Shown in pieces: positions 36,617-56,981 of a DNA stretch of 64,000 bases (position 1 is the first letter of the stretch; each line of letters starts with the position of its first letter). This DNA comes from Clostridia bacterium (lineage in GTDB: Bacteria; Bacillota; Clostridia; Oscillospirales; CAG-272). The DNA lies in contig JAFQDC010000072.1 in the NCBI GenBank assembly GCA_017416205.1, forward strand, positions 65,874 through 129,873, in the 5' to 3' direction. The notes below the pieces were generated by a model that saw nothing but the letters and a program-made list of their open reading frames with translations, was not told the origin of the DNA and did not search any database. A program made the position numbers and the translations under genes.

Positions 36617-36890
36617 CGTAGGGGAGTGCCTTGGTGCTCCCGCCTATCTGCACGCGAACTGAAACGATATTTGATGCACAAACGAACGCAAAGGATACAC
36701 GTTGTTGTAGGGGTCGACGTCCTCGACGACCCGACTATAAAATGATATTAACAGCGAGGCGTTACGTCTGTAGAGGACCGTCGAGGACGTCGGTCCCTAC
36801 AAAAATTTTAACGTTATACCTACAAAATCTCGGTATTCTAAATTTTTCGCTATCGTTCTGATAAGCGGACGAGCAATGTTCGCCCCTACA
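36617..36890 (+). repeat. mosaic repeat block, copy 1 (TGTAGGG hairpins plus conserved core 36674-36862)
   Basis: ATGCACAAACGAACGCAAAGGATACACGTTGTTGTAGGG and ACAGCGAGGCGTTACGTCTGTAGAGGACCGTCGAGGACGTCGGTCCCTACAAAAATTTTAACGTTATACCTACAAAATCTCGGTATTCT are repeated almost exactly at 37567-37757. Confidence 0.8.
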
Positions 36891-37089: not shown

Positions 37090-37554
37090 ATGAAAAAGCT
37101 GCTCAGCGTTAAAAATATAATATTTTTAGCTCTTAGTTCTTTTATGCTGTTTTTGTTCATACTAAAGATTGCAACTTTAACTATGCCGATCTTGGATGTT
37201 CTTAGGATATTTGAGTTTTTGCCTTTCTGTATTTTGGAATCAATTGGCTTCATTATGCTAAAATACGGTACGGATATTGAAGTAATAATCTGGTTTTTCC
37301 TTCCTTATTTCGTTATTGTGCTATCCATCCTTTTTATGTATTTGGGAATATACAAAAAACGTTTATTTAGCATACCGGTGTATATCATATTCATTCTTGA
37401 TCTTGTATTTAATATTATAATCAGCAGTTTTGCCGGAGCAGTTTGGGACATTATAATAATCGCAGCGTTCATCGTTGCTATGAAAAACGCGGGATATCCT
37501 AAAAAGAAAGAAGCTCCAGAGTTTGTGCTGCGCGGAGAATGGTCGAAGCTGTGA
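37090..37554 (+). CDS. hypothetical membrane protein (154 aa, about 4 TM helices)
   Basis: It is hydrophobic throughout and AT-rich, and is flanked on both sides by the mosaic repeat blocks. Confidence 0.5.
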   Translation: MKKLLSVKNIIFLALSSFMLFLFILKIATLTMPILDVLRIFEFLPFCILESIGFIMLKYGTDIEVIIWFFLPYFVIVLSILFMYLGIYKKRLFSIPVYIIFILDLVFNIIISSFAGAVWDIIIIAAFIVAMKNAGYPKKKEAPEFVLRGEWSKL

Positions 37555-37598
37555 CCGAAAAATTTTATGCACAAACGAACGCAAAGGATACACGTTGT

Positions 37599-37787
37599 TG
37601 TAGGGACAGGCGTCCTCGACTGTCCGCTGATGGAAACGATATTCACAGCGAGGCGTTACGTCTGTAGAGGACCGTCGAGGACGTCGGTCCCTACAAAAAT
37701 TTTAACGTTATACCTACAAAATCTCGGTATTCTTAATTTTTCGCTATCGTTCTGATATGCGGACAGTCGGGGACGCCTGTCCCTACA
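37599..37787. mobile_element. MITE-like 189-bp element with 29-bp terminal inverted repeats (inside repeat block copy 2, 37567-37787)
   Basis: The left end is TGTAGGGACAGGCGTCCTCGACTGTCCGC (37599-37627). The right end (37759-37787) reverse-complements to TGTAGGGACAGGCGTCCCCGACTGTCCGC, 1 mismatch in 29. There is an internal hairpin TGTAGAGGACCGTCGAGGACGTCGGTCCCTACA. No transposase is present and I saw no target-site duplication. Confidence 0.45.
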
Positions 37788-37852: not shown

Positions 37853-39469
37853 TTATGCGCTCTTCTTGTTTGTGAGAGACTTGATTGCAAAGAGAACTGC
37901 AACGGTCACTACTGCCATAACGGGAAGAACTATGTACCACTTTGTCACAAAGCCTGCGAAGATGTAGCCCACAAAGGAGATAGCTGCAACTGTGAGAGCA
38001 TAGGGAAGCTGAGTGGAAACGTGGTTGATGTGGTCGCAGCGAGCGCCCGCACTTGACATGATAGTCGTGTCGGAGATGGGAGAGCAGTGGTCGCCGCAAA
38101 CAGAACCTGCAAGGCATGCAGACATACAAACGATGCCGAGAGGATCGCCGATGGGGAAGATAGCAAGAACGATGGGGATAAGGATACCGAAGGTGCCCCA
38201 GCTTGTTCCTGTGGAGAATGCAATTAAGCAAGCTACGATGAATATGATAGCGGGGAGGAAGTTTGCAAGACCCTCAACGTTTGCAAGAGCAGCGCTGACG
38301 AATGCGTCAGAGTCGAGAAGGCCTGTCATATTCTTAAGGCTTGTTGCCATTGTAAGAATGAGGATAGCGGGTACCATTGCGATAAAGCCCTTGGGAATGC
38401 ACTCCATAGCCTCCTTGAAGGAAACAAGGCGGCGGCAGATGAAGTAGATAACTGTGAAGATAAGAGCAATAAGACCGCCCCAGGGAAGACCTACCGTTGC
38501 GTCAGTATTGGAGAATGCATCAACAAAGCCGAGAGATGCATCGTAGTTTGCAGAAGCGAATACCCATTCCTCGCCCATGCATCTGCCCACGTAGAAGAGG
38601 GAGAATACGCAGGTGATAATGAGAACGATGATGGGAAGAACAAGGTCGATGACCTTTGCCTTAGTTGTGGCGGGTGTATCGTCCTCACCTGTCTCTGTAC
38701 CTGAAGTGAAGAGGTCGCCCTTAAGTGCGTTCTGCTCGTGAAGCTTCATGGGGCCGTAGTCAAACTTCATAAGAGTGATTGCGATGATGAATACGAATGT
38801 GAGAAGGGAATAAAGGTTAAAGGGGATAGCCTGACAGAAAAGGGAGATACCCTGTCCCTCGGGAGCATAGCCGGAAACTGCTGCTGCCCAGGAGGAGATG
38901 GGAGCGATCATACAAATGGGTGCTGCTGTAGCATCGATTAGATATGAAAGCTTTGCGCGGGAGATCTTGTTCTTGTCAGTTACGGGGCGCATAACCGCAC
39001 CTACTGTAAGGCAGTTGAAATAGTCGTCGATGAAGATAAGAACGCCAAAGCAGAAGGTTGCAATGGATGCGCCTACCTTTGTCTTTACGTGCTTTGCTGC
39101 CCAGTTACCGAAGGCCGCGCTGCCGCCTGCCTTATTGAGAAGGGCAACAACGATTCCGAGAAGAACGAGGAATGCAAAGATTCCGGCACTTCCGGATACT
39201 GCGCTGATGATACCGTCAGTTACAACGGAGTCAACTGTGTGGATAGGGTTGAATTTTGTTGCAAGGAGACCGCCCATAACGATACCGACGAAGAGGGAAG
39301 AATAAGCCTCTTTTGTGATGAGGGCGAGAGCAATAGCAACAACAGGGGGGAACAGGGACCAGAGAGTTCCAACGGGGCTTGTGATCTTACCGGTGACGGC
39401 GCAGAGAACACCGAACGCGATAACGAAAGCCACGATAAGCAGATTTGTGATCAGCTTTTTGCTTTTCAT
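37853..39469 (-). CDS. NhaC-family antiporter-type transporter (probable lysine-regulated transporter)
   Basis: It is polytopic, about 538 aa, with an NhaC-like N-terminus (LWSLFPPVVAIALALITKEAYSSLFVGI). The start was trimmed to ATG 39469, which has GGAGG upstream. A lysine riboswitch precedes it. Confidence 0.8.
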   Translation of the reverse strand: MKSKKLITNLLIVAFVIAFGVLCAVTGKITSPVGTLWSLFPPVVAIALALITKEAYSSLFVGIVMGGLLATKFNPIHTVDSVVTDGIISAVSGSAGIFAFLVLLGIVVALLNKAGGSAAFGNWAAKHVKTKVGASIATFCFGVLIFIDDYFNCLTVGAVMRPVTDKNKISRAKLSYLIDATAAPICMIAPISSWAAAVSGYAPEGQGISLFCQAIPFNLYSLLTFVFIIAITLMKFDYGPMKLHEQNALKGDLFTSGTETGEDDTPATTKAKVIDLVLPIIVLIITCVFSLFYVGRCMGEEWVFASANYDASLGFVDAFSNTDATVGLPWGGLIALIFTVIYFICRRLVSFKEAMECIPKGFIAMVPAILILTMATSLKNMTGLLDSDAFVSAALANVEGLANFLPAIIFIVACLIAFSTGTSWGTFGILIPIVLAIFPIGDPLGIVCMSACLAGSVCGDHCSPISDTTIMSSAGARCDHINHVSTQLPYALTVAAISFVGYIFAGFVTKWYIVLPVMAVVTVAVLFAIKSLTNKKSA

Positions 39470-39495
39470 GATAACCTCCATAATATAATTTTTGT

Positions 39496-39529
39496 ATAAA
39501 AGAAAGGACCGTGACGGCATCACGGTCCC
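39496..39529 (-). terminator. riboswitch expression-platform terminator
   Basis: On the minus strand, GGACCGTGatgccgtCACGGTCC is followed by TTTCTTTTAT, about 27 nt upstream of the start codon. Confidence 0.7.
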
Positions 39530-39546
39530 AAATATCAAAAAGGGAT

Positions 39547-39684
39547 CCATGACAGCGCTCCACTTTCGTGACAGTACAATACATATTTTGCATTGTCCCA
39601 AGCTTCCTTAGGAAACTTTCGGCGTCATCCCCTTTCGCGGTAATAAACAAATCCGCTACTCTTGTCAGACGCACCTCTATCAGG
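39547..39684 (-). promoter_or_regulatory. lysine riboswitch (L-box) aptamer
   Basis: The minus strand reads CCTGATAGAGGTGCG...AGAGTAGC...CGAAAGGGGA...GCCGAAAG...CTTGGGAC...ACTGTCACGAAAGTGGAGCGCTGTCATGG. All L-box core motifs I know (AGAGGnGC, GAGTA, GGGGA, GCCGAA, TGGG, CTGTCAC, GTGGAG-GC) occur in canonical order. P1 closes as CC-TGATAG / CTGTCA-GG. The helices are compact (138 nt). Confidence 0.75.
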
Positions 39685-39766
39685 TCTTTCTTTATTCATA
39701 ACAGATGCTATGATAACATACCTTCGGAGCGTTGTCAATAATTTGTAACAATTTTATAAGAATCAA

Positions 39767-44024: not shown

Positions 44025-44447
44025 TTAAACTAACATAAATCCAATTTCCATTATGATAAACAGGGTGAGAGGAACAAACTGCACACAAAAGCTGAGAACA
44101 GAGTGGCCTGATCTTCTGAAACGGATGCTGAATGCTATGGAGAGCATTGAAACAATGGGAAGGGAAATACCCAAATTAACCAGAGTTGTAAGGCTAGCTA
44201 CTGCCCCTGCAGGAGGATTATCAAACGCAAAAATGCTGAAAAATCCTATCATGGATATGGGAATATAAAGCAGAGCAAGAATAACATTCGTTACGATGCC
44301 TGCGCGGTCAAGCTTGGAATAATGCTCGTTCTTTTTTGGTCCCCTAAGAATAAAAACGGTAAACACTATGGTGAGAACAAATATTACGGGAACTAAAAAT
44401 ACAGTGGGGGAGAAAGCCATAATATACCTCTTTGTTTTTTTCTTCAT
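44025..44447 (-). CDS. hypothetical membrane protein (140 aa, 4 TM helices)
   Basis: It is hydrophobic throughout and AT-rich. I recognise no family. Confidence 0.5.
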   Translation of the reverse strand: MKKKTKRYIMAFSPTVFLVPVIFVLTIVFTVFILRGPKKNEHYSKLDRAGIVTNVILALLYIPISMIGFFSIFAFDNPPAGAVASLTTLVNLGISLPIVSMLSIAFSIRFRRSGHSVLSFCVQFVPLTLFIIMEIGFMLV

Positions 44448-44576: not shown

Positions 44577-46760
44577 TTACTTGGAGGTCATTCTTCTCTT
44601 TCTGATGATTATAACTGTTGCCATACCGCAAAGTGCGATCATAGCTGCGATCATAACGATCACGAAGTTATCGCCTGTAGCAGAGGAGCCGCCGTTAAGG
44701 TTAACGTCGGAGCCGTTAGTGTTGCCGCCGTTGTTGTTGTCAGCGTTGCCGCCGCCGATAATGTTGCCTGCTTCACCCTCAAGGTAGTAGCAAGCGAACA
44801 TCCAGCAGTCTTCAAGGTCGCCGCCAACCCAAACGGAGTCTCCGTACCAACCGAGGCTTGTTCCTGCCTTCTTGAATACAGCGATAAGGTCGTCGGTAAG
44901 GGGATAGAGGCCTGTTTCCTCGTCCATGCACTCGAGGTATTCGATCATAGCGATAGTGAAGTCGTATACCTTAACAACCTCGTCGCCCTCGTAGATAAGC
45001 TCCTTGAGCTGACCGTAGCTGTTTGCAGCCTCGAGAGACATGAGTGTGTCGTTGAGATCTGCATAGAGGATGGGGCCGTCAGCGCTGTTGAGGTGGTAAT
45101 AGCCGTCCTCGCCGAGAACTGCTGTATCTACTGCAGCATCGAATGTATCAACGTAGAGAAGATCGTCAGCATTGCCTGTGAAGTCAAATGCCTCGGGCTT
45201 CTTTGCATTTTCGTGATATTCGCGGGGGATCTCCTTGATCACAACCTCTTCATAGTCAACTGTTACGTTTGCAGTTCCGTCAAGTGTGAGAACTGCAACC
45301 CAGATAGACTGACCAACTCCTGTGCAGAGCCACTCGAAGGAGTTTTCTGTAACAACTCCCTCGGAGATATAGTCGCCACTTTCGCCTACGTTCACCCACA
45401 TACCGTTGGTGCTTACGAGACCGATAAGGCCGTTTGCGCATGTGAATGTATACTTACCTGTGTTTTCAGGCTCGAATGTGTAGAGAGTATAGGGATAGAA
45501 GGGATCTACGGGATAATCGTTAGTACCGAGAACGAGATATCCGTCGTTATGAATGAAGTTGCACTCGGGAGTTTCGTCGCCGCTGCCGCCTTCGTCACCA
45601 CCGATGTCGCCGCCGCCGATGTCATCACCGCCGCCTTCACCGTTCTCTCCTGCAACGAAGCTGAGAGTCCAGTTAACTGTTCCCGCGGGATTTGCCCACA
45701 TATTAGCGGGATCATAGGTTGCAACGAAGATAGTGAGAACGTCGCCGGGCATTACGCCGATCTCCTCAGAGGAAACAACGGGATCGTCATCAGACCAGTG
45801 CATATCGCCGTAAATATATCCGCCGTCAGCCTTTTCTCCGTTGATGCTATACTGCCAGCCGGAGGCATCGTTCATAGTAATAGTAGCGGTGCCTTCTTCT
45901 GTAGCTGTCCACTTATAGTAGTGTCCCTGGTTGCCCTCTTCAAGAGAAGCGGAATGATCGCCTGCCTCGATATTTTCGGGAGCACCCATGGAGCCAACGC
46001 CAGCAAAGCTAACGCTTATGTTTGCAGTACCCTCGGGATTTGCCCACATATTTTCGGGGTTATAGGTTGCAACAAAGATCTGAAGCTCATCGCCTGCAGA
46101 TACTGCAACTTCTTCGTAATACACAGGCTCTGCATCGTCGCTGTAGTTATAGTTGCCGTATGAGCCCTTTGTAAGGTTGTTTACAAAATAGAGCCAGCCA
46201 ACATCGTTATAGTCAGCATCGTAAGCACCTGCACCGATCATAAATACACCGTCAGCGGGAGCTATGAGGGAGTACCAATGACCCTCGTTGCCGGCTTCGA
46301 GAGCTGCCTCAACATATGCTCCGAGAGCGCCGCCGTAGGGGTTTACCTGAAGCTCGATAACCTCAGGGTTATCCATTGTACCGTACTGGATATCACCGCC
46401 GCCTGTAAGTGTGAGCTTAATGGTGAGAGCCTCTGTATCGTTATTCTGGATCTGGAATGTGTCAGCACCTGTAACCATGGTAAGCTCTGTTGCTGCATTA
46501 TATGTCTGTCTGCAGTACCAGAAGAAGTAGTTCTGGCTTGATGCCTCGACTACATTTGCTACGGAGCCGTTGCAGTTGTTTACTTTAACGTATACGCCGC
46601 TTTCTGCGGGAACGTTAACGGTTATAGCTTCTGTTGCTGTATTATCCAACAGATAGGGATTTTCGTATGTACCGAGAGCAGCGTCCTCAGCAAATACGAC
46701 AACTGATATTGTTGAAGCAAGAACTGCCAATACCAGAAGGATGCTTAAAACCTTTTTCAT
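44577..46760 (-). CDS. surface protein (727 aa): signal peptide, tandem beta-sandwich modules, Cys-pair YYH...CYY module, Gly/Asn linker and C-terminal TM anchor
   Basis: It has the signal peptide MKKVLSILLVLAVLAS...FAED and an internal duplication (GDELQIFVATYNPENMWANPEGTANISVSF vs GDVLTIFVATYDPANMWANPAGTVNWTLSF). The C-terminus is FVIVMIAAMIALCGMATVIIIRKRR, with no LPXTG. The RBS is AAGGAG. Confidence 0.7.
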   Translation of the reverse strand: MKKVLSILLVLAVLASTISVVVFAEDAALGTYENPYLLDNTATEAITVNVPAESGVYVKVNNCNGSVANVVEASSQNYFFWYCRQTYNAATELTMVTGADTFQIQNNDTEALTIKLTLTGGGDIQYGTMDNPEVIELQVNPYGGALGAYVEAALEAGNEGHWYSLIAPADGVFMIGAGAYDADYNDVGWLYFVNNLTKGSYGNYNYSDDAEPVYYEEVAVSAGDELQIFVATYNPENMWANPEGTANISVSFAGVGSMGAPENIEAGDHSASLEEGNQGHYYKWTATEEGTATITMNDASGWQYSINGEKADGGYIYGDMHWSDDDPVVSSEEIGVMPGDVLTIFVATYDPANMWANPAGTVNWTLSFVAGENGEGGGDDIGGGDIGGDEGGSGDETPECNFIHNDGYLVLGTNDYPVDPFYPYTLYTFEPENTGKYTFTCANGLIGLVSTNGMWVNVGESGDYISEGVVTENSFEWLCTGVGQSIWVAVLTLDGTANVTVDYEEVVIKEIPREYHENAKKPEAFDFTGNADDLLYVDTFDAAVDTAVLGEDGYYHLNSADGPILYADLNDTLMSLEAANSYGQLKELIYEGDEVVKVYDFTIAMIEYLECMDEETGLYPLTDDLIAVFKKAGTSLGWYGDSVWVGGDLEDCWMFACYYLEGEAGNIIGGGNADNNNGGNTNGSDVNLNGGSSATGDNFVIVMIAAMIALCGMATVIIIRKRRMTSK

Positions 46761-46814
46761 GTTTTTCTCCTTAAGAACTATATGAATTAATTGCTTTCAA
46801 ACAATTACTCGGTT

Positions 46815-46843
46815 ATTGTAGCACAATAGAGTGCCGGTTGCAA
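46815..46843 (-). promoter_or_regulatory. candidate internal promoter (TTGCAA-17 nt-TACAAT with TG extension) in the only sizeable gap of the gene train
   Basis: The minus strand reads TTGCAAccggcactctattgTGcTACAAT, about 55 nt upstream of the ATG at 46760. Confidence 0.35.
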
Positions 46844-46861
46844 TAGAAAAATAAATTTAAA

Positions 46862-47902
46862 TTAAATGAATTTTCCTACCCAGGTCATATTGAGGGCAGG
46901 TCTGTTATTTCTTCTGTCAGGCTTTGCTCCCACATTAATAATGAGCTCATCGCCTGCATTGACCTGCATCTCTATGTATGCGCCGTTTGCATCTTCTGCA
47001 AGATCAGCTTCGCTTGTTCTCTGGGCGGAATTGCGGTTATTGGTGATCATCATAATGTAATCCGCATTCTTCTGAGTAACGTAGAAGCGTATCGTACCTG
47101 CTTTTTCTGCGTAGTACTTATAGAAGTAACCGTCATCGTCTCCTGCGGGAAGAGTGAGAGCAACGGGAGCGCCCATTTTTGTTACGAGCAGGGGATTTGA
47201 CTGTGTACCTGTAAGATTTGTAAACACGAGGGTAAAGGATGCTGCAGCGCCGCCTGTGTTACCGATCTCAAGAGTGATGAAATCACTTGCGAGAGCTGCG
47301 GGAGCTACAAATGCAACAACACCGTTCTGAGCGTTATAGCGAACGCCGTTGCAAACGACGTATGCTGCGGGGCTGTTAATTGTAACGTACATACCGCCTA
47401 TACGCTGAATGCTGTAGAAGAGGGACTTGCCCGCAGGAACCGCTACTGTTGTAACAGACATACTGTTTGTTCCTACGGTAGGGATCTCGAGATAGGGATT
47501 ATCCTTGGAGCCCTGACCCAGTATCTCCTCGCCTGAGGGATTGGTTACGGGAGCATCTGTAACAGGGGTGGTAACGGGATTCTGGTTAACTACAGGAGCG
47601 GTCGTATCGGGAGCGGTTGTTTCAGCCTCGGTGGTCTCAGCTTCTGTAGTTTCGGCCTCAGTGGTTTCTTCCTCTGTTGTGTCAGCCTCTGTAGTATCCT
47701 CGGCTGTCGTATCTTCCTCAGTAGTATCGTTCTGAACGATAGTTGTATCGTCGGGCTTATTGTCATCCTTATCGTTATCGTCAATGTTTCCGACAACGAT
47801 ACAGATCGCCACGATTATAGCAATTATAAGAACAAGAGCTATACCTGCAACAATAAGCAGTCTTTTATCAAGGGCTTTAAGCTTATCGAGCAAGGACTTC
47901 AT
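46862..47902 (-). CDS. N-terminally anchored surface protein (346 aa) with a Thr/Glu-rich linker and two beta-sandwich-like modules
   Basis: It has a TM anchor at aa 15-38, a (TTEAE)n linker and NPY/NPL-initiated modules resembling those of the 727-aa protein. Confidence 0.65.
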   Translation of the reverse strand: MKSLLDKLKALDKRLLIVAGIALVLIIAIIVAICIVVGNIDDNDKDDNKPDDTTIVQNDTTEEDTTAEDTTEADTTEEETTEAETTEAETTEAETTAPDTTAPVVNQNPVTTPVTDAPVTNPSGEEILGQGSKDNPYLEIPTVGTNSMSVTTVAVPAGKSLFYSIQRIGGMYVTINSPAAYVVCNGVRYNAQNGVVAFVAPAALASDFITLEIGNTGGAAASFTLVFTNLTGTQSNPLLVTKMGAPVALTLPAGDDDGYFYKYYAEKAGTIRFYVTQKNADYIMMITNNRNSAQRTSEADLAEDANGAYIEMQVNAGDELIINVGAKPDRRNNRPALNMTWVGKFI

Positions 47903-47904
47903 GA

Positions 47905-48324
47905 TCAGCCTACCTTTGAAATCTCGAGAGTGTACTCAGTTGCGCCTGCTTCAAGGTAGATCTCACGTGCGCCTGTGTATTCATAGCCTTCGGGACAGGA
48001 CATTACGGAGAGCTTGTGGCCTTCCTCAACTGCAACGTTGAAGAGAGCGATACCCTTATCATCGGATCTTGCGGGAACGCAAGCATCCTTGCAGATCTGA
48101 ACGATAACGCCGGGAACGACGTTGCCGTCACCGTCAACGATAGTTACCTTGAAGCTCTTTGCAGCCTCAGTTGTATCTGCAGCTGTTGTATCAGCGGGCT
48201 TTTTGTCTGCAACAGTTGTATCAGCTACAGTTGTGTCTTCTTCCTTGTTTCCGTTACAAGCGCAAAGGCCAAAGATCATGCAGCCAACGAGTATAAGAGC
48301 GAGAAGAATCTTAATGTTTTTCAT
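47905..48324 (-). CDS. small lipoprotein (139 aa) with a (ADTT)n linker and prealbumin/CarboxypepD_reg-like beta-sandwich
   Basis: It has the lipobox GLCAC. FKVTIVDGDGNVVPGVIVQICKD...SDDKGIALFNV matches the module that opens the three upstream genes. Confidence 0.65.
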   Translation of the reverse strand: MKNIKILLALILVGCMIFGLCACNGNKEEDTTVADTTVADKKPADTTAADTTEAAKSFKVTIVDGDGNVVPGVIVQICKDACVPARSDDKGIALFNVAVEEGHKLSVMSCPEGYEYTGAREIYLEAGATEYTLEISKVG

Positions 48325-48342
48325 AATAATCTTTCCTTTCAG

Positions 48343-49200
48343 TTAATGTTGATTATCGGGAATATCTTCGATATTTCTGATCGTAGTTTGAGTGTAGCTT
48401 TCAGATGTGAAGAATTCAAATATCCTTTCGAATACGCCTTCTTCTGTTACCATGCCCTTATGTATCATAGACACGGTGCCGTATCTGTCAATGACTACGG
48501 TGGTGGGATAGGCTGTGAGCTTCATAGCCTTTTCCCAGGCGATATCGGCCTTTGCCATAGGGAAGGTAAGACCGTTGCTTTTTGCAAACTCGGATATGCT
48601 TTGTTCCGTACCGTCAACGGGATTGAGGGCAACAAGCGCAATATCCTCGCTGTATTTGCAAAAAGCCTTTTCAAGATAGGGGAACTCGGTTTTACAGGGG
48701 CCGCAGTTCATAAACCAGAAGTTCAGAACAACTGCCTTTTTCGTTTCAAGAAGCTTTGAGAGGGTGTGCTTTTCGCCGTTACAGTCAGTCACTTCAAAGT
48801 CGAGAAAGACGCTGCCCAGGGAAAACACAGTATTATCAAGGCTTTCCTTTGGGAGAAGCTTTGCTTCAAGGATGATATCGGTGCTGTCGGAATCCACAGG
48901 ATAATGATCCTTTGCAGTATAACCGAGAGGGGATTCCTTGAGGGCAGCGTAGTAGGTGCCCTCAAGGGCTGTAAATGTAATTTTTCCGTCAGTGTCTGTA
49001 GTTGAAGCCCAGACAAGCTTTGAAAGATCTTCGTCCTCGAAAACGTTGATGACAACGCCTGCAAGAGGCATACCGCTGTCACCCGTAAGGGTAATGGTAT
49101 AGGGGATCCTTTCAGTTTTGTCCGAGTCCTTTGCGCATCCCGAAAAAGCAAGTCCGGAAAGCAAGAGGACAAGGAGGATTATAAAGCTGAGCTTTTTCAT
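48343..49200 (-). CDS. lipoprotein: CarboxypepD_reg-like beta-sandwich plus TlpA/ResA-like thioredoxin (CGPC)
   Basis: It has the lipobox AFSGC, YTITLTGDSGMPLAGVVINVF...TDTDGKITF, then VVLNFWFMNCGPCKTEFPYL...YPTTVVIDRYGTV, a typical thiol-disulfide oxidoreductase fold. Confidence 0.8.
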   Translation of the reverse strand: MKKLSFIILLVLLLSGLAFSGCAKDSDKTERIPYTITLTGDSGMPLAGVVINVFEDEDLSKLVWASTTDTDGKITFTALEGTYYAALKESPLGYTAKDHYPVDSDSTDIILEAKLLPKESLDNTVFSLGSVFLDFEVTDCNGEKHTLSKLLETKKAVVLNFWFMNCGPCKTEFPYLEKAFCKYSEDIALVALNPVDGTEQSISEFAKSNGLTFPMAKADIAWEKAMKLTAYPTTVVIDRYGTVSMIHKGMVTEEGVFERIFEFFTSESYTQTTIRNIEDIPDNQH

Positions 49201-49207
49201 GTCTTTA

Positions 49208-50455
49208 TCAGCCTGCGTAGCAGCACATAAGGAGCCACGCGATCTCTGTATTGATGGTAGAGTCGTTATTTCCGTCCATATCCTTGAAGATATAGCCGTG
49301 GCCGTCTATATCCCACCAGCCTGCATGGTCGCCGTGCTGCTGGATGATATACTTAAGATCCTCTGTGAGGGGGTAAACGCCTTCGTTCTCGTCAGCGCAT
49401 TCGATATACTTGGAAACGCAGTCCGTATAATTCTCACGCTTTACGAAATTCTCGTAGTCCTTGCCCTTACCGTCGTAGAAGTACTTAAGGATACCCTGCT
49501 TTTTGATGATGGTGCCGAAGCAGGCGATATAGTCGCAGTCCTCTGTGAGACGAACAAGAACAAGGGGGCCGTCCTCGCTTCCCAGGTGGTAGAACTCGTC
49601 ATTTTCGTTATAAACCAGCTTGTAAGTGTCGGTAGCGGCTGTAAGATCAAACTCCTTAAGCTCTGTTCCCTCGGGAAGAGTATAGATATCCATTTCGTGG
49701 GTAGCCTTGTATACCTCCCAAGGCTCATCCTCGATGGTCTTCTTGGGGTCGCCGAGGCGGTTGATGGCAAGAACGGTGTTTGCGGTCTTGTCGTCCTTTG
49801 AGTCGATACCGATAACGTAAGTGGCAGTACCGCCGTCGCCTGAGCCGATCATATCTGCTCTGACGGTGATGGTGAAGCTGTTATCCTTGATCTCGGCAGT
49901 ATTCTGAGTCTGAACGAAGTGAGGAGCGCCGTAGTAGCCTATCTCGACCTTTGCAGAGTCCTTGATGGAGAACTCATATTCGCCTGCCTGAGTGGGGGAG
50001 AAGAGAAAATAAGTTCTTGCGTTCTTTTCGAGAGTAACGTAGGAGCAGCCAACGGATACGGAATAAACGTCGTGCTCATTACCTTCAGCGTGAAGAACGG
50101 TGGTCTCTCCGACAGGAACATTAGCAAGGATAACGTCAGCTTCGGTTTCCTTTGCAGTTACCTTGGCTCCGCCCTCGTAATGGTAAGCCTCAGCGTTATC
50201 AGTAAAGCTGAGCTCAACGTCGTAGTCGCCCTTTGCCAGGACCTTTTCTGCAACGCCGTCCTTGTTAACAGCCTGCATAGCGACCTTTTCGCCGTTCTGC
50301 ATAAACTGAACGACGATACCGGTAGTATAAGGATTGCCGAGAGCATCCTTAACGCTTACCTTGTATGTTGCCTCGCCTCCTGCAGAGCAGGAAGCGAGGA
50401 GAAGTGCTGACAGAAGAAGGGTAGTTGCAAGAATGAGAGTAATAATTCTTTTCAT
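49208..50455 (-). CDS. lipoprotein (415 aa): CarboxypepD_reg-like module, beta-sandwich and Cys-pair YYH...CYY module
   Basis: It has the lipobox LLLASC, YKVSVKDALGNPYTTGIVVQF...NKDGVAEKV, and the C-terminal FYHLGSEDGPLVLVRL...YIECADENEGVYPLTEDL...IAWLLMCCYAG. Confidence 0.7.
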   Translation of the reverse strand: MKRIITLILATTLLLSALLLASCSAGGEATYKVSVKDALGNPYTTGIVVQFMQNGEKVAMQAVNKDGVAEKVLAKGDYDVELSFTDNAEAYHYEGGAKVTAKETEADVILANVPVGETTVLHAEGNEHDVYSVSVGCSYVTLEKNARTYFLFSPTQAGEYEFSIKDSAKVEIGYYGAPHFVQTQNTAEIKDNSFTITVRADMIGSGDGGTATYVIGIDSKDDKTANTVLAINRLGDPKKTIEDEPWEVYKATHEMDIYTLPEGTELKEFDLTAATDTYKLVYNENDEFYHLGSEDGPLVLVRLTEDCDYIACFGTIIKKQGILKYFYDGKGKDYENFVKRENYTDCVSKYIECADENEGVYPLTEDLKYIIQQHGDHAGWWDIDGHGYIFKDMDGNNDSTINTEIAWLLMCCYAG

Positions 50456-50479
50456 AATTTTAACCTCGATTCCAAAAAA

Positions 50480-53479
50480 TTATTTACCGAGGTGATCGTA
50501 GTAGTAGCAGAGCTTCAGCCAGGAGTGTTCAACATCGTCGAAGGTGTACTTATCCATAAGCTCCTGAAGGATCTCAGCAAGGCGCTCATCAACTACTACG
50601 CAGCCGTCAAGCTCAGTGCCGGACTTATCGATCTTATCAACGTAAGCCTTGATATCGTCGGTAAGGTCGGGGCCCTTGCCGTGGTAACGGCCGTCGAAAA
50701 TGTCGTCGATCTGATAGAGATCGCAGTTTGCGTCGTAATCCTCGCCCCAGAGCTTTTCAAGATATTCCTTAGTCTTTTCAACGTCGCCGTCGTTCTGCCT
50801 AAGGTATGCAAGGATCTCGCCGTCAGTTTCAGACTTTGAGAAGTCAAAGCCGCCCATCTGGATCATTTCGAGGATAGACTGGCTGAATACGGGTGTGAGG
50901 CCTGTGAAGTCGCAGTAGATGAGGCTTCCGTCCTCGGAGTAGTACTTGCCGTCACGAAGAACGGGAGTGATACCGCCTGTGATAATATCGTAGATCTCCT
51001 CTCCTGTTGCGTCGGAGTCGTATGTGAAGTATCCGGGAGCGCAGAGGCGGAAGAGGTCGTAGGAGGGAGCAATGAACTCTACGTCATAGTAGATGTAGCC
51101 TGTTGCGTATACGTCCCAGAACGCCATATTGATATAGTATGCAGTTCCTGCTTCCATGTAGTATACCATAGAGCAGTTGATATCGTCGGTGTACATTCTT
51201 TCATCGTGCTCATATGTGAGGAGAACGTTGCTGTTTCCGTCGAAGATCCAAGCATCGATACCGTCCTGATAGTCGCTCTTGGAGGTGAAGCGGTAAACGC
51301 CGGACTCTGTGGGAACGAACTTTGCGAATGTACCTCTGGGGATGATAGCGCGGTCATAGTAGAAGTAGTTTGTGGAGACGTCCTTGCCAAGTGTTACGGT
51401 ATATGCAGAGGAGGTGGAAAGTCCCTTGATGGGGTCCTCAAGCTGCTTTCCGGAGGGGCCGTATGCCTGGAAGTACTTACACATCTTGAGCCACTCGTTG
51501 GGGTCGTCGTCAAAGCCTGCAACATCAGCTACCTGCTTGAGCATCTCAGCAAGCTCGCGGTTGACCGTGCAGATACCCTTGAGGGAAGCATTGGATGCAT
51601 AGGAGAAGTACTGAACCATTCCAAGGCCGCCGTCTTCCTTCTTGTTGTAAAGGCTGATACCGTCCTTATCTGCCTCGCCGTTGTAAACTATATTCTGAAC
51701 GTAGTCCTCTTCGTTGAAGGGGGTGTAGTCCTGAAGATCTGCAAGGAGGAGGGGACCGTCTGCAGTTCCTACGTGGTAGTAGCCGTCAGTCTCATTGAAT
51801 ACAACGTTAACGTACTTATATGTTTCGCCGTCGTCATCGGTGGTTGCCGCATATCTGGGAAGGTATGTGTCAACGTCGATATCGGAAGAGGAAACGACTC
51901 TCATATTGTCGATGTAAACAGTGTCCTCGCCCTCGGCGCCGTCGGAGTCCTTAAGGTAGCAGAATGCAACCTCGTATGTGCCGTCCTTATCTGCAACGAG
52001 AGGATAGCAGGACTTCCATGCTTCCTTTTCGTCAACGCCGGAGATCTGGAATACGTCCTCGCCGTCAACGATAACGTAGAGCACGTCGCAAAGTCGCTCG
52101 GAGGAGATGAGGTAGTCAAATCCGAGAGCCTGACCTGCCTTAAGGGTAACGTCTGCGTACATAATGGTGGTAGTATCGTCGATACCTATGTTGGATGCCT
52201 TGATGCAGTCTGCGCCAAGCTTTTCAGCCTTGATGAAGGGCCAGATATACTCAGCGTTTTCGTCCTCTGTTTCGGGACGGTAGGTAATATCTATGTTGCC
52301 CTTGTTGATAGTAGCCGCGATCTCCTCGCTTGCGGGCATTTCAACGTTGGGCTTGATAAGAGTAACCATCTCATGGATGGACTGGCAGATCTTCTGCTCG
52401 TAGTCCTCAGCTGTGAAGTGGTCAAACGCGCAAACCCAGGGGCGCTTGGATGTTACCGCACCAACCTCGATCACGGAGATTACGCCGTAACGGTCAATGA
52501 AGACACTTGTGGGGTAGCCCTGGATAGAGAATGTGTTGGACCAGGAGGAGGGGCATGTTGCAACAATGAAGGGAAGCTTTTGCTGATTCTGGAATGCCCT
52601 TACAGCTTCAACTGTCTGGTCCATAATAAGGTTATTGAGAGCGATGATCTCAATGTCTTCCTTATAGTCCTCATAAACGTCGGAAATGATGGGAAACTCG
52701 GAAACACAGGGGCCGCAGGTAGAGTACCAGAAGTTGAGCATTACCATCTTCTTGTCCTTGAGGATCTCGGAGAGAGTAATGTCCTCGCCGTCGATGGACT
52801 GTACGGTAAAGTCGTACATAACGTCGCCGGCCTTAAGAGTTGCTGTGGAGAGGTCCTCGTCTGTGATAAGAGCGGAGGAGAGCTTGATGGAAGCCTTTTC
52901 GCCGTCGAAGGCGTAGCTTTCCTTAACGTCGTATCCCTTGGCAACGCCGGATAGAACGATAGCGTACTTGTCGCTCTTTGCGAGCTTGAAGCTTACCTTA
53001 CCCTCGCTGTCGGTCTTGGCGTAGTCGGACATATCCTCAAGCTTATCGTTTGTATAAACGTATACGTCAATGCCTTCAAGGGCCATACCGCCCTTGGTTT
53101 TGACGGTAACGGAATACTCAGTCTTTTCGCCGGCAGCGCCGCCGTCGCCCTCACCGTCGCCGTCGCCTGTGGATATGCCCTTAAAGAGTGCGATACCACC
53201 GAAGACAGCTCCTGCGATAAGGAGTGCGCCGAGAATGCATGCAATAATGATGATGGGAAGCTTCTTGGATTTTTTCTTAGGCTCCTTTTCTTCGGGAGCC
53301 TTGGGAGGTTCGATGGGGGCACTTTCCTTGGAGGTCTCGTCCTCCTTTTCAGGTGCCGCATTTTCCTCAGGCTTTTCAGCCTCGGGCGCGGTTGCTTCCT
53401 CTGCGGTTTCTGTAGCCTTTTCCTCTGCGGATTCAGCTACCAGCTCCTCAGAGGAGTTGATATCTTTTTCTTTTTCCAT
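50480..53479 (-). CDS. TM-anchored multidomain surface protein (~1000 aa): acidic cytoplasmic N-terminus, CarboxypepD_reg-like module, TlpA-like thioredoxin (CGPC), jelly-roll-like domain and two Cys-pair modules
   Basis: It has a TM helix at aa 78-103, YSVTVKTKGGMALEGIDVYVY...TDSEGKVSF and MVMLNFWYSTCGPCVSEFP...YPTSVFIDRYGVI. The Cys-pair modules are YYHVGTADGPLLLADL...GICTVNRELAEML...WLKMCKYF and ...GCVVVDERLAEIL...WLKLCYYY. The ORF track starts at 53491. I prefer ATG 53479 because GGAG lies 6 nt upstream of it. Confidence 0.75.
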   Translation of the reverse strand: MEKEKDINSSEELVAESAEEKATETAEEATAPEAEKPEENAAPEKEDETSKESAPIEPPKAPEEKEPKKKSKKLPIIIIACILGALLIAGAVFGGIALFKGISTGDGDGEGDGGAAGEKTEYSVTVKTKGGMALEGIDVYVYTNDKLEDMSDYAKTDSEGKVSFKLAKSDKYAIVLSGVAKGYDVKESYAFDGEKASIKLSSALITDEDLSTATLKAGDVMYDFTVQSIDGEDITLSEILKDKKMVMLNFWYSTCGPCVSEFPIISDVYEDYKEDIEIIALNNLIMDQTVEAVRAFQNQQKLPFIVATCPSSWSNTFSIQGYPTSVFIDRYGVISVIEVGAVTSKRPWVCAFDHFTAEDYEQKICQSIHEMVTLIKPNVEMPASEEIAATINKGNIDITYRPETEDENAEYIWPFIKAEKLGADCIKASNIGIDDTTTIMYADVTLKAGQALGFDYLISSERLCDVLYVIVDGEDVFQISGVDEKEAWKSCYPLVADKDGTYEVAFCYLKDSDGAEGEDTVYIDNMRVVSSSDIDVDTYLPRYAATTDDDGETYKYVNVVFNETDGYYHVGTADGPLLLADLQDYTPFNEEDYVQNIVYNGEADKDGISLYNKKEDGGLGMVQYFSYASNASLKGICTVNRELAEMLKQVADVAGFDDDPNEWLKMCKYFQAYGPSGKQLEDPIKGLSTSSAYTVTLGKDVSTNYFYYDRAIIPRGTFAKFVPTESGVYRFTSKSDYQDGIDAWIFDGNSNVLLTYEHDERMYTDDINCSMVYYMEAGTAYYINMAFWDVYATGYIYYDVEFIAPSYDLFRLCAPGYFTYDSDATGEEIYDIITGGITPVLRDGKYYSEDGSLIYCDFTGLTPVFSQSILEMIQMGGFDFSKSETDGEILAYLRQNDGDVEKTKEYLEKLWGEDYDANCDLYQIDDIFDGRYHGKGPDLTDDIKAYVDKIDKSGTELDGCVVVDERLAEILQELMDKYTFDDVEHSWLKLCYYYDHLGK

Positions 53480-53512
53480 ATTGATCTCCATTCTAAAAAT
53501 TTAGAGGGGTCG

Positions 53513-53777: not shown

Positions 53778-54782
53778 TCAGTCAAGGAGATGGCAAGCGG
53801 CGCAGTGGCCGTTACCGTAGTCCTTATATTCGGGAACCTTTTCCTTACAGATATCTGTTGCGTGAGGGCAACGAGTATGGAAGCGGCAACCCTTGGGAGG
53901 ATTTGCAGGGGAGGGGATGTCTCCCTTGAGGATTATTCTGTTCATCTTCACGTCGGGATCGGGATGGGGGATTGCGGAGAAGAGCGCCTGCGTATAGGGA
54001 TGCAGGGGCTTTGAGAAAATATCTTCCTTCGTTCCGTACTCTACCATGCTGCCGAGGTACATAACGCCGATCTTATCGGAGATATATTTAACAACGGAAA
54101 GGTCATGGGAAATGAAGATGTATGTCAGACCGAGATCCTCCTGAAGCTTCTTCAGAAGGTTGATGATCTGAGCCTGAATTGAAACGTCAAGGGCGGAAAC
54201 GGGCTCATCGCAAACCACAAGTCCGGGATTTACCGAGAGTGCGCGGGCGATACAGATACGCTGTCTCTGTCCGCCGGAGAACTCGTGGGGGTAACGCTCG
54301 TAGTAGTAATCGCGAAGGCCGCATTTATCCATAAGGTCGAGAACGTAGTTCTTGATCTCTGCCTTAGGAACGATCTTGTGCACCTCAACGGGCTCGGAAA
54401 GGATACCGCCTACGGTGCTTCTGGGGGGGAGTGATGAATAGGGATCCTGGAAGATGATCTGCATCTTCTTTCTGATCTCTCTCATCTGCTTTTTCTTGTA
54501 TTTGGTAATATCCTTTCCTTCGAAGATGATATTACCGCCTGTGGGCTCGTGGAGCTTGAGGATAGCGCGTCCGAGAGTGGTCTTACCGCATCCGGACTCA
54601 CCAACTATACCCAGTGTTTCTCCTGCTTTGAGCTTGAAGGAAACGTTATCAACGGCGATAAGCTCCTGAGTTACCTTACCTGTAATAGTCTTCTTGAGGG
54701 GGAAGCTTTTGCAAAGATTCTTGACTTCAAGAATAACGTTATCATTGTTTGCGTCGAAAGGAACGCACTTTTCATCAGCCAT
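53778..54782 (-). CDS. oligopeptide/dipeptide-type ABC transporter ATP-binding protein (OppF-like)
   Basis: It has Walker [10 protein letters not shown], the signature FSGGQRQR, Walker [12 protein letters not shown] and the C-terminal Cys-rich oligo_HPY-type tail. The start was trimmed to ATG 54782 (GAGGAGG upstream), overlapping the upstream gene by 8 nt. Confidence 0.9.
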
Positions 54783-55929
54783 TGTTCTTTTCCTCCTCAC
54801 TGTAAAGATGGCAGGCAACGTAGTGAGTAGGGCTCACCTGTACCATTCCGGGATAGTCGCCTGAGCACTTCGCAATGCACTTGTCACAGCGCTCCTTGAA
54901 GTAGCAGTGAGAGGGCATATTAACGGGGTTAGGTACGTTACCGGGGATATTGAAAAGCATATCACTGTCAGACTTGAGAGTAGGCTTTGACTTCTGAAGT
55001 CCGATAGTGTAGGGGTGCATGGGGTTATGGAAGATCTCCTTTGCAGTACCCTGCTCGATTACCTTACCTGCGTACATAACTACAACGTAGTCAGCCATCT
55101 CTGCGATGATACCCAGGTCGTGGGTAATGAGCATGATAGAGCCGTCGATCTTGTCCTTAAGGTCGCGGAGAAGATCGAGGATCTGCGCCTGAATAGTAAC
55201 GTCAAGAGCAGTTGTGGGCTCGTCTGCAATAATGAGTCTGGGGTCTGCGGCGAGAGCCATAGCTATCATAACTCTCTGTCGCATACCGCCGGAGAGCTCG
55301 TGGGGGAATGCGGCGTAAACTCTTTCGGGAGCCGCAATACCTACGAGGTTGAGCATTTCCATGGATTTTGCCTTGGCATCCTCCTTGGTAGCGCCCTTTT
55401 TATGGATGAATGTAACTTCATCAAGCTGCTGTCCGATGGTGAAAACGGGGTTCAGGCTTGTCATAGGCTCCTGGAAGATCATAGCTATCTGATTTCCGCG
55501 GATCTTATGGATATCGCGGATAGGCATCTTAGCTATATCGTACACTTTTTCGCTTCCGTCCTCTTCCTTTGCGTTGAAGCGGATCTCGCCGGAATAGATC
55601 TGGCCTGTGGGCCCCTGCAAGAGTCTCATAACGGACATACTTGTAACGCTTTTTCCGCAACCGGATTCGCCAACGATACCAACGGTTGCATTCTTGGGGA
55701 TATTGAGAGAAACACCGTTAACAGCCTTGACAACGCCCTGCTCTGTAAAGAAGTAGGTATGGAGGCTGTCGATCTCAAGGATATTCTTATTATCCTTCAT
55801 TTCCGTAAGGTATTCGCTCTCGTCGCACTTGCGGTTCTTATAAGCCTCAAGGCGCTTCATTATTTTATTGTTTTCTTTGGCAATGGCGCGTATTTCGCGA
55901 CCGGAGAGATAATTTTTATTCTTAGCCAT
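54775..55929 (-). CDS. oligopeptide/dipeptide-type ABC transporter ATP-binding protein (OppD-like) with a ~47-aa N-terminal extension
   Basis: It has Walker A GESGCGKSV, the signature LSGGMRQR, Walker B IIADEPTTALD and a C-terminal Cys-rich tail. Confidence 0.9.
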   Translation of the reverse strand: MAKNKNYLSGREIRAIAKENNKIMKRLEAYKNRKCDESEYLTEMKDNKNILEIDSLHTYFFTEQGVVKAVNGVSLNIPKNATVGIVGESGCGKSVTSMSVMRLLQGPTGQIYSGEIRFNAKEEDGSEKVYDIAKMPIRDIHKIRGNQIAMIFQEPMTSLNPVFTIGQQLDEVTFIHKKGATKEDAKAKSMEMLNLVGIAAPERVYAAFPHELSGGMRQRVMIAMALAADPRLIIADEPTTALDVTIQAQILDLLRDLKDKIDGSIMLITHDLGIIAEMADYVVVMYAGKVIEQGTAKEIFHNPMHPYTIGLQKSKPTLKSDSDMLFNIPGNVPNPVNMPSHCYFKERCDKCIAKCSGDYPGMVQVSPTHYVACHLYSEEEKNNG

Positions 55930-55931
55930 TA

Positions 55932-56981
55932 TTATCTCCTCGCTTTCGGGTCAAGGGCGTCGCGCAGACCGTCGCCGATGAAGTTGAAGCCGAGAACGGC
56001 AATAACGATACATACGCCGGCGGGAACCCATACGTTCAGATGGTTCTGAAGGATGTCCTGATTTGTTGAAATGATGTTGATCATAGTACCCCAGGCGGCG
56101 TAAGGAGCCTTAACGCCAAGATTGAGGTAGGAAAGGGTTGCCTCGTAAAGGATCATGCTACCGAGAGAAAGTGACATGGATACGATAAGCTGGGGCATAA
56201 CGTTAGGAACGAGATGCTTGAAGATCTGGCGGCTTGTGGAGTAACCCATAGCCTCTGCCGCAACCATATACTCCTGCTCACGGAGAGAAAGGATCTGACC
56301 GCGCACAAGGCGGGCAGTACCGGGCCAGGAGATAAAGGTGAGGTAGATCATAAGGAGATAGATACGGTACTTCGCATCGATCTCGGAAGCATCAAGGATT
56401 GTACTGATAATAAGGAGGATCGGGATACCGGGCAGACATATAAGTATATCGCAAAGACGCATGATTATGTTATCAATAGCGCCGCCGAAGTATCCTGCGA
56501 TACCGCCAAGGATTACGCCGAGGATGGTAATAAGGAATACTGCGATAAAGCTTACCGTAAGAGAGATACGGCCACCGTACATAAGACGTACGAAGATGTC
56601 GTAGCCCTCGTTATCCGTACCAAGGATATGAGTTGCACTCGGTCCGTCAAGGAAGTTATCCTTAAGGGATTTCTCTGTAGTCTGACGGATAGTGTATTCC
56701 TTGCCGTCAACGGTATATGTAGTCTCGGAAACGGAGTACTCGGTCTTACCGCTTTCGTCAAGCTCGATCTCGCCCCACTCTGTATAGAGAAGAGGGCCTG
56801 CGAAGGAGAAGATAAAGAGTCCGATTACCATTATAAGACCTATGATCGAGAGCTTTGAACGGAAGAATCTTCTGACTACCATTCTGGTAGGAGACATAAG
56901 ACGGACCGTTTTATCGTGAGGCACGTCGTCTTCCTGAACGGTCTTTTCTTCATTTGTTTCTTTTTCTTTGATATCGTTCAT
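55932..56981 (-). CDS. ABC transporter permease (OppC-like)
   Basis: It has an N-terminal extension plus 6 TM helices. The binding-protein-dependent transport motif is AAEAMGYSTSRQIFKHLVPN. Confidence 0.9.
   Translation of the reverse strand: MNDIKEKETNEEKTVQEDDVPHDKTVRLMSPTRMVVRRFFRSKLSIIGLIMVIGLFIFSFAGPLLYTEWGEIELDESGKTEYSVSETTYTVDGKEYTIRQTTEKSLKDNFLDGPSATHILGTDNEGYDIFVRLMYGGRISLTVSFIAVFLITILGVILGGIAGYFGGAIDNIIMRLCDILICLPGIPILLIISTILDASEIDAKYRIYLLMIYLTFISWPGTARLVRGQILSLREQEYMVAAEAMGYSTSRQIFKHLVPNVMPQLIVSMSLSLGSMILYEATLSYLNLGVKAPYAAWGTMINIISTNQDILQNHLNVWVPAGVCIVIAVLGFNFIGDGLRDALDPKARR

Follow-up and report, generated by a model that had tools for sequence, protein, structure and literature searches.

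An undescribed extracellular domain recurs beside TlpA-like thioredoxin domains in a surface protein gene cluster of gut Clostridia

A row of genes for exported proteins

This report concerns a row of genes within a 64,000-nucleotide stretch of contig JAFQDC010000072.1 (assembly GCA_017416205.1) from a metagenome-assembled genome (MAG) of the class Clostridia; the whole stretch is called the window here, and positions refer to it unless a related locus is named. Three of the proteins encoded by the row carry, between them, four copies of a recurring domain, hereafter the module. The genes lie on the minus strand in the order A1003, B415, C285, D139, E346, F727 and then G140. Inspection of the sequences points to export or anchoring for each of the six larger products, A1003 and E346 by an N-terminal transmembrane segment, B415, C285 and D139 by a lipobox, and F727 by a signal peptide together with a C-terminal transmembrane segment. 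The genes and domains are as follows.

50480..53491, minus strand: A1003 gene, an open reading frame (ORF) whose product has an N-terminal transmembrane anchor, then prealbumin-like, TlpA-like thioredoxin (CGPC) and jelly-roll-like middle domains, and finally module copies 1 and 2 with a PPC-like sandwich between them
52442..52846, minus strand: TlpA/ResA-like thioredoxin domain of A1003 (residues 216-350), active site WYSTCGPC
51455..51853, minus strand: module copy 1 of A1003 (residues 547-679; hidden Markov model (HMM) envelope), Cys at alignment columns 96 and 134
51056..51454, minus strand: putative PPC-like beta-sandwich between the A1003 modules (residues 680-812), recognised by sequence with the motif F-x-P-x3-G-x-Y-x-F
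50483..51028, minus strand: module copy 2 of A1003 (residues 822-1003; HMM envelope), Cys at columns 95 and 134
49208..50455, minus strand: B415 lipoprotein gene, an ORF with the lipobox LLASC, for an Ig-like domain followed by a PPC-like sandwich and then the module
49211..49651, minus strand: module of B415 (residues 269-415; HMM envelope), the reference for numbering
48343..49200, minus strand: C285 lipoprotein gene, whose product joins a prealbumin-like domain to a TlpA-like thioredoxin domain (WFMNCGPC)
47905..48324, minus strand: D139, an ORF for a small lipoprotein with an Ig/prealbumin-like domain, a conserved cluster member
46862..47902, minus strand: E346, with an N-terminal transmembrane segment, a T/E-rich linker and beta-sandwich repeats, a conserved cluster member
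44577..46760, minus strand: F727 gene, whose product runs from a signal peptide through beta-sandwich repeats, a PPC-like sandwich, the module and a G/N-rich linker to a C-terminal transmembrane anchor
44772..45188, minus strand: module of F727 (residues 525-663; HMM envelope), Cys at columns 88 and 134 and one extra Cys

Pfam and NCBIfam recognise just two things in this row, namely prealbumin/Ig-like domains and the two TlpA/ResA-like thioredoxin domains of A1003 (residues 220-347 by Pfam Redoxin/AhpC-TSA, E 9e-13) and C285 (residues 129-252), the latter in a protein whose position in the cluster is conserved. F727 has no match in either library at E<=1; the repeats of E346 are related to its N-terminal part (BLASTP E 6e-5). 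NCBI entries for the exact proteins stem from a Clostridia MAG (locus tags IJA52_06255-06280), and the names given are 'TlpA family protein disulfide reductase' (the 90% cluster of A1003), 'redoxin domain-containing protein' and 'hypothetical protein'. G140, a small membrane protein at 44025..44447 on the minus strand, was considered as a further cluster member and set aside, having no match among ORFs of at least 70 residues at related loci and no family match.

Four homologous copies of one module

Translation of the minus strand returned the peptides that an initial annotation of the window had reported as four copies of one module, in F727 (residues 520-660), B415 (245-415) and A1003 (545-676 and 812-1003). 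The spacing of 30-58 residues it gave between two cysteines in each copy was likewise correct (30, 31, 46 and 58 residues), as was the placement of the module at the C-terminal end of B415 and A1003 and, in F727, ahead of the G/N-rich linker and membrane anchor. The beta-sandwich motif said to precede the module is also present, and by Foldseek the sandwich matches ColG collagen-binding/PPC domains.

Pairwise BLASTP relates F727 (residues 542-639) to B415 (273-381) at E 3e-11 and A1003 copy 1 (556-673) to B415 (276-413) at E 1e-4, and is marginal for A1003 copy 2 (E 0.67), which contains an inserted segment of ~70 residues, GGFDFSKSETDGEIL... Orthologs were gathered separately for each copy and the four sets compared, unmixed, profile against profile with hhalign. 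The F and B families matched at 99.6% probability (E 9e-25), the copy-1 family matched B+F at 98.6% (E 1e-15), and the copy-2 family matched the copy-1 family at 96.4% (E 1e-9) over the C-terminal 55 columns and B+F at 75% (E 2.5e-5) over the whole module, across the ~70-residue insertion. Furthermore, A1003 copy 1 is matched at 34 bits by an HMM made solely from the B and F families, and the first block of the fourth copy, degenerate in the window, reads DGYYH in its orthologs (P0039 and P0066). Judged by these profile comparisons, the four copies are true homologs, with a similarity far beyond chance.

A large family outside described domains

The module lies in no family described so far, as the initial annotation had supposed. 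Searches of Pfam-A 2025 and NCBIfam 20.0 gave no match over the module in F727, B415 or A1003, and no Pfam family covers it in 55 diverse representatives. A sequence search of the PDB with phmmer gave no match for the module, and the best hit of a profile search of the PDB, 2jpu, was not significant (E 0.05, 17 bits); lacking Foldseek support, this match to 2jpu/2q00 was regarded as noise. Neither the family libraries nor a literature search returned a description of the module or of the six-gene cluster.

AlphaFold2 modelled mature B415 with a mean predicted local distance difference test score (pLDDT) of 93.2. Because this whole-protein model matched the PDB over the sandwich only, the B415 module was also modelled (pLDDT 93.0, predicted template modelling score 0.84) and searched alone, and its best Foldseek matches were at E 0.95 (probability 0.03) in the PDB and E 0.26 in BFVD. 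The module model has strands at 12-15, 20-23, 30-34, 55-59, 69-74, 92-94 and 143-145 and helices at 45-51, 76-85, 97-110 and 138-142, in module numbering (add 268 for B415). Its layout is a beta-hairpin with D-G-x-Y-H...G-P, two helices around a strand with G-x-Y-P-L-T-x-D-L, and an end with W-x3-C-x-Y. The module is an undescribed extracellular alpha/beta domain of ~130-190 residues.

An exhaustive search with a profile of 28 diverse modules (alignment A4) against 1.84 billion representatives yielded 1386 representatives at 50% identity with E<=1e-3, of which 824 also passed E<=1e-10 and 74 passed E<=1e-30. This is a large domain family, ~1400 clusters at 50% identity, that carries no annotation and has no detectable relative among solved structures, and the genome sources identified so far are all uncultured gut or rumen Clostridia MAGs.

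Sandwich, module and thioredoxin in recurring architectures

The sandwich of B415 matches 1nqd_B, 2o8o_A, 5sv5 and 4hpk_B in Foldseek (probability 1.0, target template modelling score 0.49-0.59, root mean square deviation ~4 A, ~110 columns). The neighbouring sandwich, and not the module, therefore resembles the PPC/ColG collagen-binding domain in fold and in its G-x-Y-x-F type motif; it differs from that domain in sequence, since none of the seven proteins of the row matches the PPC family PF04151 at E<=1. By analogy with the B415 sandwich, the block between the two A1003 modules ('A_680_812'), which is kept in all A-type orthologs, may have the same PPC-like fold.

Among 144 representatives of the family, PPC-like sandwich blocks precede the module in nearly all, and in most the module ends 0-7 residues from the C-terminus. 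Their N-terminal signal peptides, lipoboxes or transmembrane segments place the module outside the cytoplasm in every case, as far as sequence features tell. A TlpA-like domain is fused in 53 of the 144, and 26 have two modules. Similarly, Pfam finds Redoxin/AhpC-TSA in 17 of the 55 diverse representatives, dockerin in six, and otherwise only Ig/prealbumin-type domains. Four architectures recur: the A type (anchor, prealbumin, thioredoxin, jelly-roll, module, sandwich, module); the B type, a lipoprotein with Ig domain, sandwich and module that in some cases has an E346-like extension; a form of about 900-1100 residues in which thioredoxin is joined to E346-like and B-like parts and the module; and the F type, in which a signal peptide, sandwich repeats and the module are followed by a transmembrane anchor or a dockerin.

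At one related locus (L084:8001-9911), a stand-alone gene with no thioredoxin gene nearby encodes a secreted protein of two sandwich-plus-module units and a type I dockerin. To judge from this sequence, the module is also used in cellulosome-type proteins. Another module protein adjoins a giant leucine-rich repeat (LRR) protein, again with no thioredoxin gene nearby. Cellulosomal proteins carry dockerin-borne modules of unknown function, often called X modules; these resemble some members of the present family, in which sandwich-plus-module units are followed by a type I dockerin, but the searches related the module to no described one in sequence or in fold, and most of its family are membrane-anchored proteins or lipoproteins.

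A short sequence with 90% identity to the F727 module (P0035) was rejected as an independent short form, being a truncated remnant beside a resolvase gene. In a Ruminococcaceae MAG (L001:10001-10465, also L002 and L003), an ORF of 154 residues that adjoins a serine resolvase/recombinase gene shares 90% identity with the C-terminal part of F727 (the linker, the transmembrane segment and half of the module) and looks like what is left of an F727 ortholog.

A cluster kept in order across species-level genomes

Related loci were collected with a B415-family alignment (A6), which biases the resulting 80 loci towards B415-type clusters. In these 80 species-level genomes the order A-like, B-like, thioredoxin lipoprotein, D-like, E-like and F-like is kept almost without exception, and the domain architecture of A1003 recurs at the 80 loci. 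The cluster comprises two TlpA-like proteins with CGPC sites and three module proteins, A1003 being both. The thioredoxin lipoprotein is fused with downstream genes in some lineages. All 80 genomes are Clostridia MAGs, from the gut of ruminants or other animals where a source is named, and they span Avispirillum, Fimenecus, Acutalibacteraceae, Oscillospiraceae, Ruminococcus, Faecousia and Lachnospiraceae; the closest is a Candidatus Avispirillum MAG with 93% identity over the B415 module. Two further contexts of the module have thioredoxin genes nearby. The link between module and thioredoxin fold that had been noticed in the window is thus general, as shown by the fusions (17/55 by Pfam, 53/144) and by the synteny of the cluster, and the association with TlpA-like CGPC domains is strong, not obligatory.

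In 26 of the 80 loci the cluster is followed by a convergent gene for a protein of about 490-517 residues (for example L015:15445-16881 on the minus strand, L026, L083 and L086:15508-17061), which combines a NapH-like Fer4_5 membrane domain, marked by four CX3CP motifs, with two 4Fe-4S motifs, a transmembrane segment and a C-terminal TlpA-like domain (WCTPC). The same fusion also occurs near a divergent module protein. It is not encoded in the window, where no CcdA-like or NapH-like motif was found. Such a protein could provide a route for electrons to the cell surface that is independent of CcdA.

Directly upstream of the cluster in the window, on the same strand, lie genes for an OppF, OppD and OppC-like ATP-binding cassette (ABC) transporter (53778-56981, minus strand). 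This transporter was considered as a functional partner and rejected: Opp genes are adjacent in just 21 of the 57 loci with enough upstream sequence, and unrelated housekeeping genes lie there in other loci (DnaE, PFK, SpoIVB, GH1 or BipA). Because the upstream genes vary in this way, we read the Opp adjacency as lineage synteny and not as a functional link. The SpoIVB (peptidase S55) gene stands upstream of the cluster in two lineages (L015:4842-6170 and L080:690-1919).

Thioredoxin domains compared with known systems

The thioredoxin domains of A1003 and C285 score 48-58 bits against Redoxin/AhpC-TSA, where the Pfam cut-offs are 26, and with their CxxC site and an N-terminal transmembrane segment or lipobox they qualify as TlpA/ResA-like. 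The ResA, StoA, DsbE and TlpA models match weakly, and every NCBIfam equivalog cut-off is missed. For the sporulation reductase StoA the match has E 2e-14, below the cut-off. The CGPC sequence itself is the active site of the classical reducing thioredoxin.

Like the extracytoplasmic oxidoreductases TlpA, ResA and StoA, the cluster therefore presents tethered, outward-facing thioredoxin-fold domains with a CxxC site. Unlike those systems, its domains have CGPC and come with prealbumin-like, jelly-roll and PPC-like domains and the module as fused neighbours, and the module has no counterpart there; the window encodes no cytochrome c, no Sco or Msr client and no CcdA. In Streptococcus pneumoniae, the Etrx-CcdA-MsrAB2 system consists of Gram-positive surface lipoprotein thioredoxins encoded next to an extracellular client. 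The present cluster is similar in having surface lipoprotein thioredoxins beside accompanying extracellular proteins, whereas the client of the Etrx system is a known enzyme, MsrAB2, with CcdA as donor, and the proteins accompanying the thioredoxins here are uncharacterised; the membrane protein adjacent in 26 of the 80 related loci is the NapH-like iron-sulfur (FeS) protein with a TlpA domain. The thioredoxin part is a known kind of system; for the module, for its fold as judged by Foldseek searches of PDB and BFVD, and for the six-gene cluster, neither the libraries nor the literature search gave a description.

Conserved residues and variable cysteines

Conservation was assessed over 360 modules, non-redundant at 80% identity, drawn from the 144 representatives, the first homolog sets and the 80 genome loci. 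The near-invariant columns are these.

Column 21: D, 94%
Column 25: H, 85%; Y in the copy-2 subfamily (49/360)
Column 31: G, 98%
Column 85: Y, 96%
Column 102: L, 97.5%
Column 130: W, 99%
Column 134: C, 93%
Column 136: Y, 93%

In a smaller set of 72 modules, G22 reaches 96% and Y24 100%.

The initial annotation had held that each copy keeps a pair of cysteines and had seen in this a disulfide that might be made, broken or used catalytically. One half of the pair stands, in that the terminal Cys at column 134, four residues after the Trp, is present in 335 of the 360 modules. The middle Cys is not one position. In the profile alignment F727 and B415 have it in column 88, whereas in A1003 it stands in column 96 (copy 1) or 95 (copy 2). 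Over the whole set the share of modules with Cys in columns 88, 96 and 95 is 30%, 17% and 19%, respectively; these cysteines never occur together, each being specific to a subfamily, and even among close orthologs of B415 and F727 column 88 may be Y, V, F, A or N. Modules have one to six cysteines, and 26 of the 360 have a single one. Across these alignments there is accordingly no conserved Cys pair in the module, and its cysteines do not form a conserved catalytic pair; nor does it offer two Cys at equivalent conserved positions, the mark of a redox-active dithiol domain.

Where Cys134 is missing, its place is taken by L (13 modules), V (8), I (3) or A (1). Replacement by these residues only is typical of a buried core residue and not of a catalytic or redox one, and on this pattern Cys134 is probably buried. 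Columns 81 and 135 covary strongly (odds ratio 47, p 3e-41): 106 modules have C/C there, 52 have A/Y and 37 have E/Y. This suggests a contact and, in modules of the B415 type, probably a disulfide. A mean-field direct coupling analysis of 509 modules (effective number ~332), run for contacts of Cys134, was too noisy, missing even the strongly co-occurring 81-135 pair, and was discarded.

Other features of the window

A direct repeat of ~200 nucleotides (92-97% identical; 36669-36870 and 37562-37764) brackets an ORF at 37090..37554, with a 43-nucleotide inverted repeat at 37599-37641 and 37745-37787. It lies in a low-GC stretch (0.37-0.40, 34-38 kb) coding for small hypothetical membrane proteins and lipoproteins, and there was no Rfam match. 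A lysine riboswitch (RF00168, 84 bits; 39545-39687, minus strand) stands upstream of a gene for a multi-pass membrane protein of 582 residues (37853..39601, minus strand), presumably a lysine-regulated transporter.

Discussion

We tentatively favour, with a probability of roughly 0.4, a reading in which the sandwich and module together serve tethered extracellular disulfide reductases as a head for binding or targeting that is itself non-catalytic, with one core Cys and variable structural disulfides. Placed at the outer end of lipoproteins, membrane-anchored proteins or dockerin-borne surface proteins of gut Clostridia, this head would hold an extracellular partner or substrate near the tethered CGPC domains, and these TlpA-like domains would then reduce disulfides of the partner held. 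The cysteines of the module itself would be structural, one of them buried in the core at column 134 and others forming lineage-specific disulfides such as that proposed between columns 81 and 135 in the B415 type. The dockerin-borne protein with two sandwich-plus-module units and the member beside the LRR protein argue for such a head, as they indicate that the module works with no reductase nearby.

Several observations weigh against this reading. D21, H25, Y85, W130 and C134 are conserved more strongly than a pure scaffold needs, a degree that fits a catalytic or metal site. Moreover, modules with Cys at column 95 or 96 have Cys134 in 131 of 131 cases, compared with 204 of 229 in the rest. 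The case for a binding head is drawn from architecture, and that for the burial of Cys134 from the pattern of its substitutions.

The second of these observations bears on the idea that the module is itself a redox client or relay, in which the terminal Cys forms a disulfide with a Cys at column 88, 95 or 96, or with a substrate, and the CGPC domains reduce the module. A candidate partner is present in 225 of the 335 modules with Cys134 and, together with the invariable co-occurrence in the A1003 type, this makes a disulfide with Cys134 possible in some subfamilies and is compatible with a functional Cys pair in the A1003-type subfamily. The high conservation of Cys134, the strong association with TlpA-like domains by fusion and in the cluster, and the NapH-like FeS-TlpA protein that flanks 26 of the 80 loci, suggestive of a dedicated electron supply, all point in the same direction. 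However, the remaining 110 of these 335 modules have no candidate partner, some modules have a single Cys, and a lost Cys134 becomes L, V, I or A. The partner, where present, occupies one of three columns, two of which, 95 and 96, lie next to each other in a single predicted strand; their side chains would therefore point to opposite faces, and the two could hardly pair with Cys134 in the same way. Some family members, in addition, have no thioredoxin gene nearby. We therefore regard a redox client as rather unlikely for the family as a whole and possible mainly for the A1003-type copies.

A metal-binding role appears very unlikely. In Bradyrhizobium, TlpA keeps Cys reduced for the metallation of ScoI and CoxB, and by the same logic His25, Cys134 and Asp21 or a Tyr might form an extracellular site whose Cys is kept reduced by the neighbouring TlpA-like domains. 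The 85-96% conservation of D21, H25, C134, Y85 and Y136 and the association with TlpA-like domains agree with such a site, but His25 is Tyr in the fourth-copy subfamily, Cys134 is exchanged for aliphatic residues and not for His, Asp or Met, and the module contains no known metal-site motif.

Just as improbable, in our view, is that the module merely caps the PPC-like sandwich and has no function of its own, its link to thioredoxin being synteny inherited within one clade. The module is indeed always adjacent to the sandwich and, as the 80 genomes are all related Clostridia MAGs, the counts given above are not phylogenetically independent. Yet residues of surface type are strongly conserved over 360 modules less than 80% identical to one another, and at least four architectures retain the module, among them repeated gene fusions with thioredoxin domains.

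Least probable of all is an enzyme with an Asp-His-Cys triad (hydrolase or transglutaminase-like) acting on an extracellular polymer, with some tandem copies inactive: D21, H25 and C134 are each at least 85% conserved and the dockerin-borne members resemble cellulosomal enzymes in architecture, but no hydrolase fold was matched (best Foldseek E 0.95, probability 0.03), D21 and H25 are i and i+4 at the hairpin, and the Cys sits in a hydrophobic W-L-F-A-C-C-Y segment in a predicted strand, 2-4 residues from the C-terminus, where it is replaced by L, V or I.

Beyond the binding head that we favour, a bolder proposal, which we consider distinctly unlikely as it stands, is that the module, the CGPC TlpA-like domains and, in many relatives, the NapH-like polyferredoxin-TlpA fusion make up a new surface machine for reducing disulfides. 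In such a machine the module would capture disulfide-bearing substrates from diet or host, or would serve as a thiol relay, and electrons would arrive through the FeS/CX3CP protein and not through CcdA or DsbD.

In Gram-positive anaerobes, extracytoplasmic reductase systems are poorly understood. Candidate roles for the present cluster include the reduction of disulfides in dietary or host proteins, the maintenance of surface thiols, and the maturation of spore or envelope, and a dedicated, tethered, multi-protein reducing apparatus with an accessory domain of its own would offer a testable entry point into this biology.

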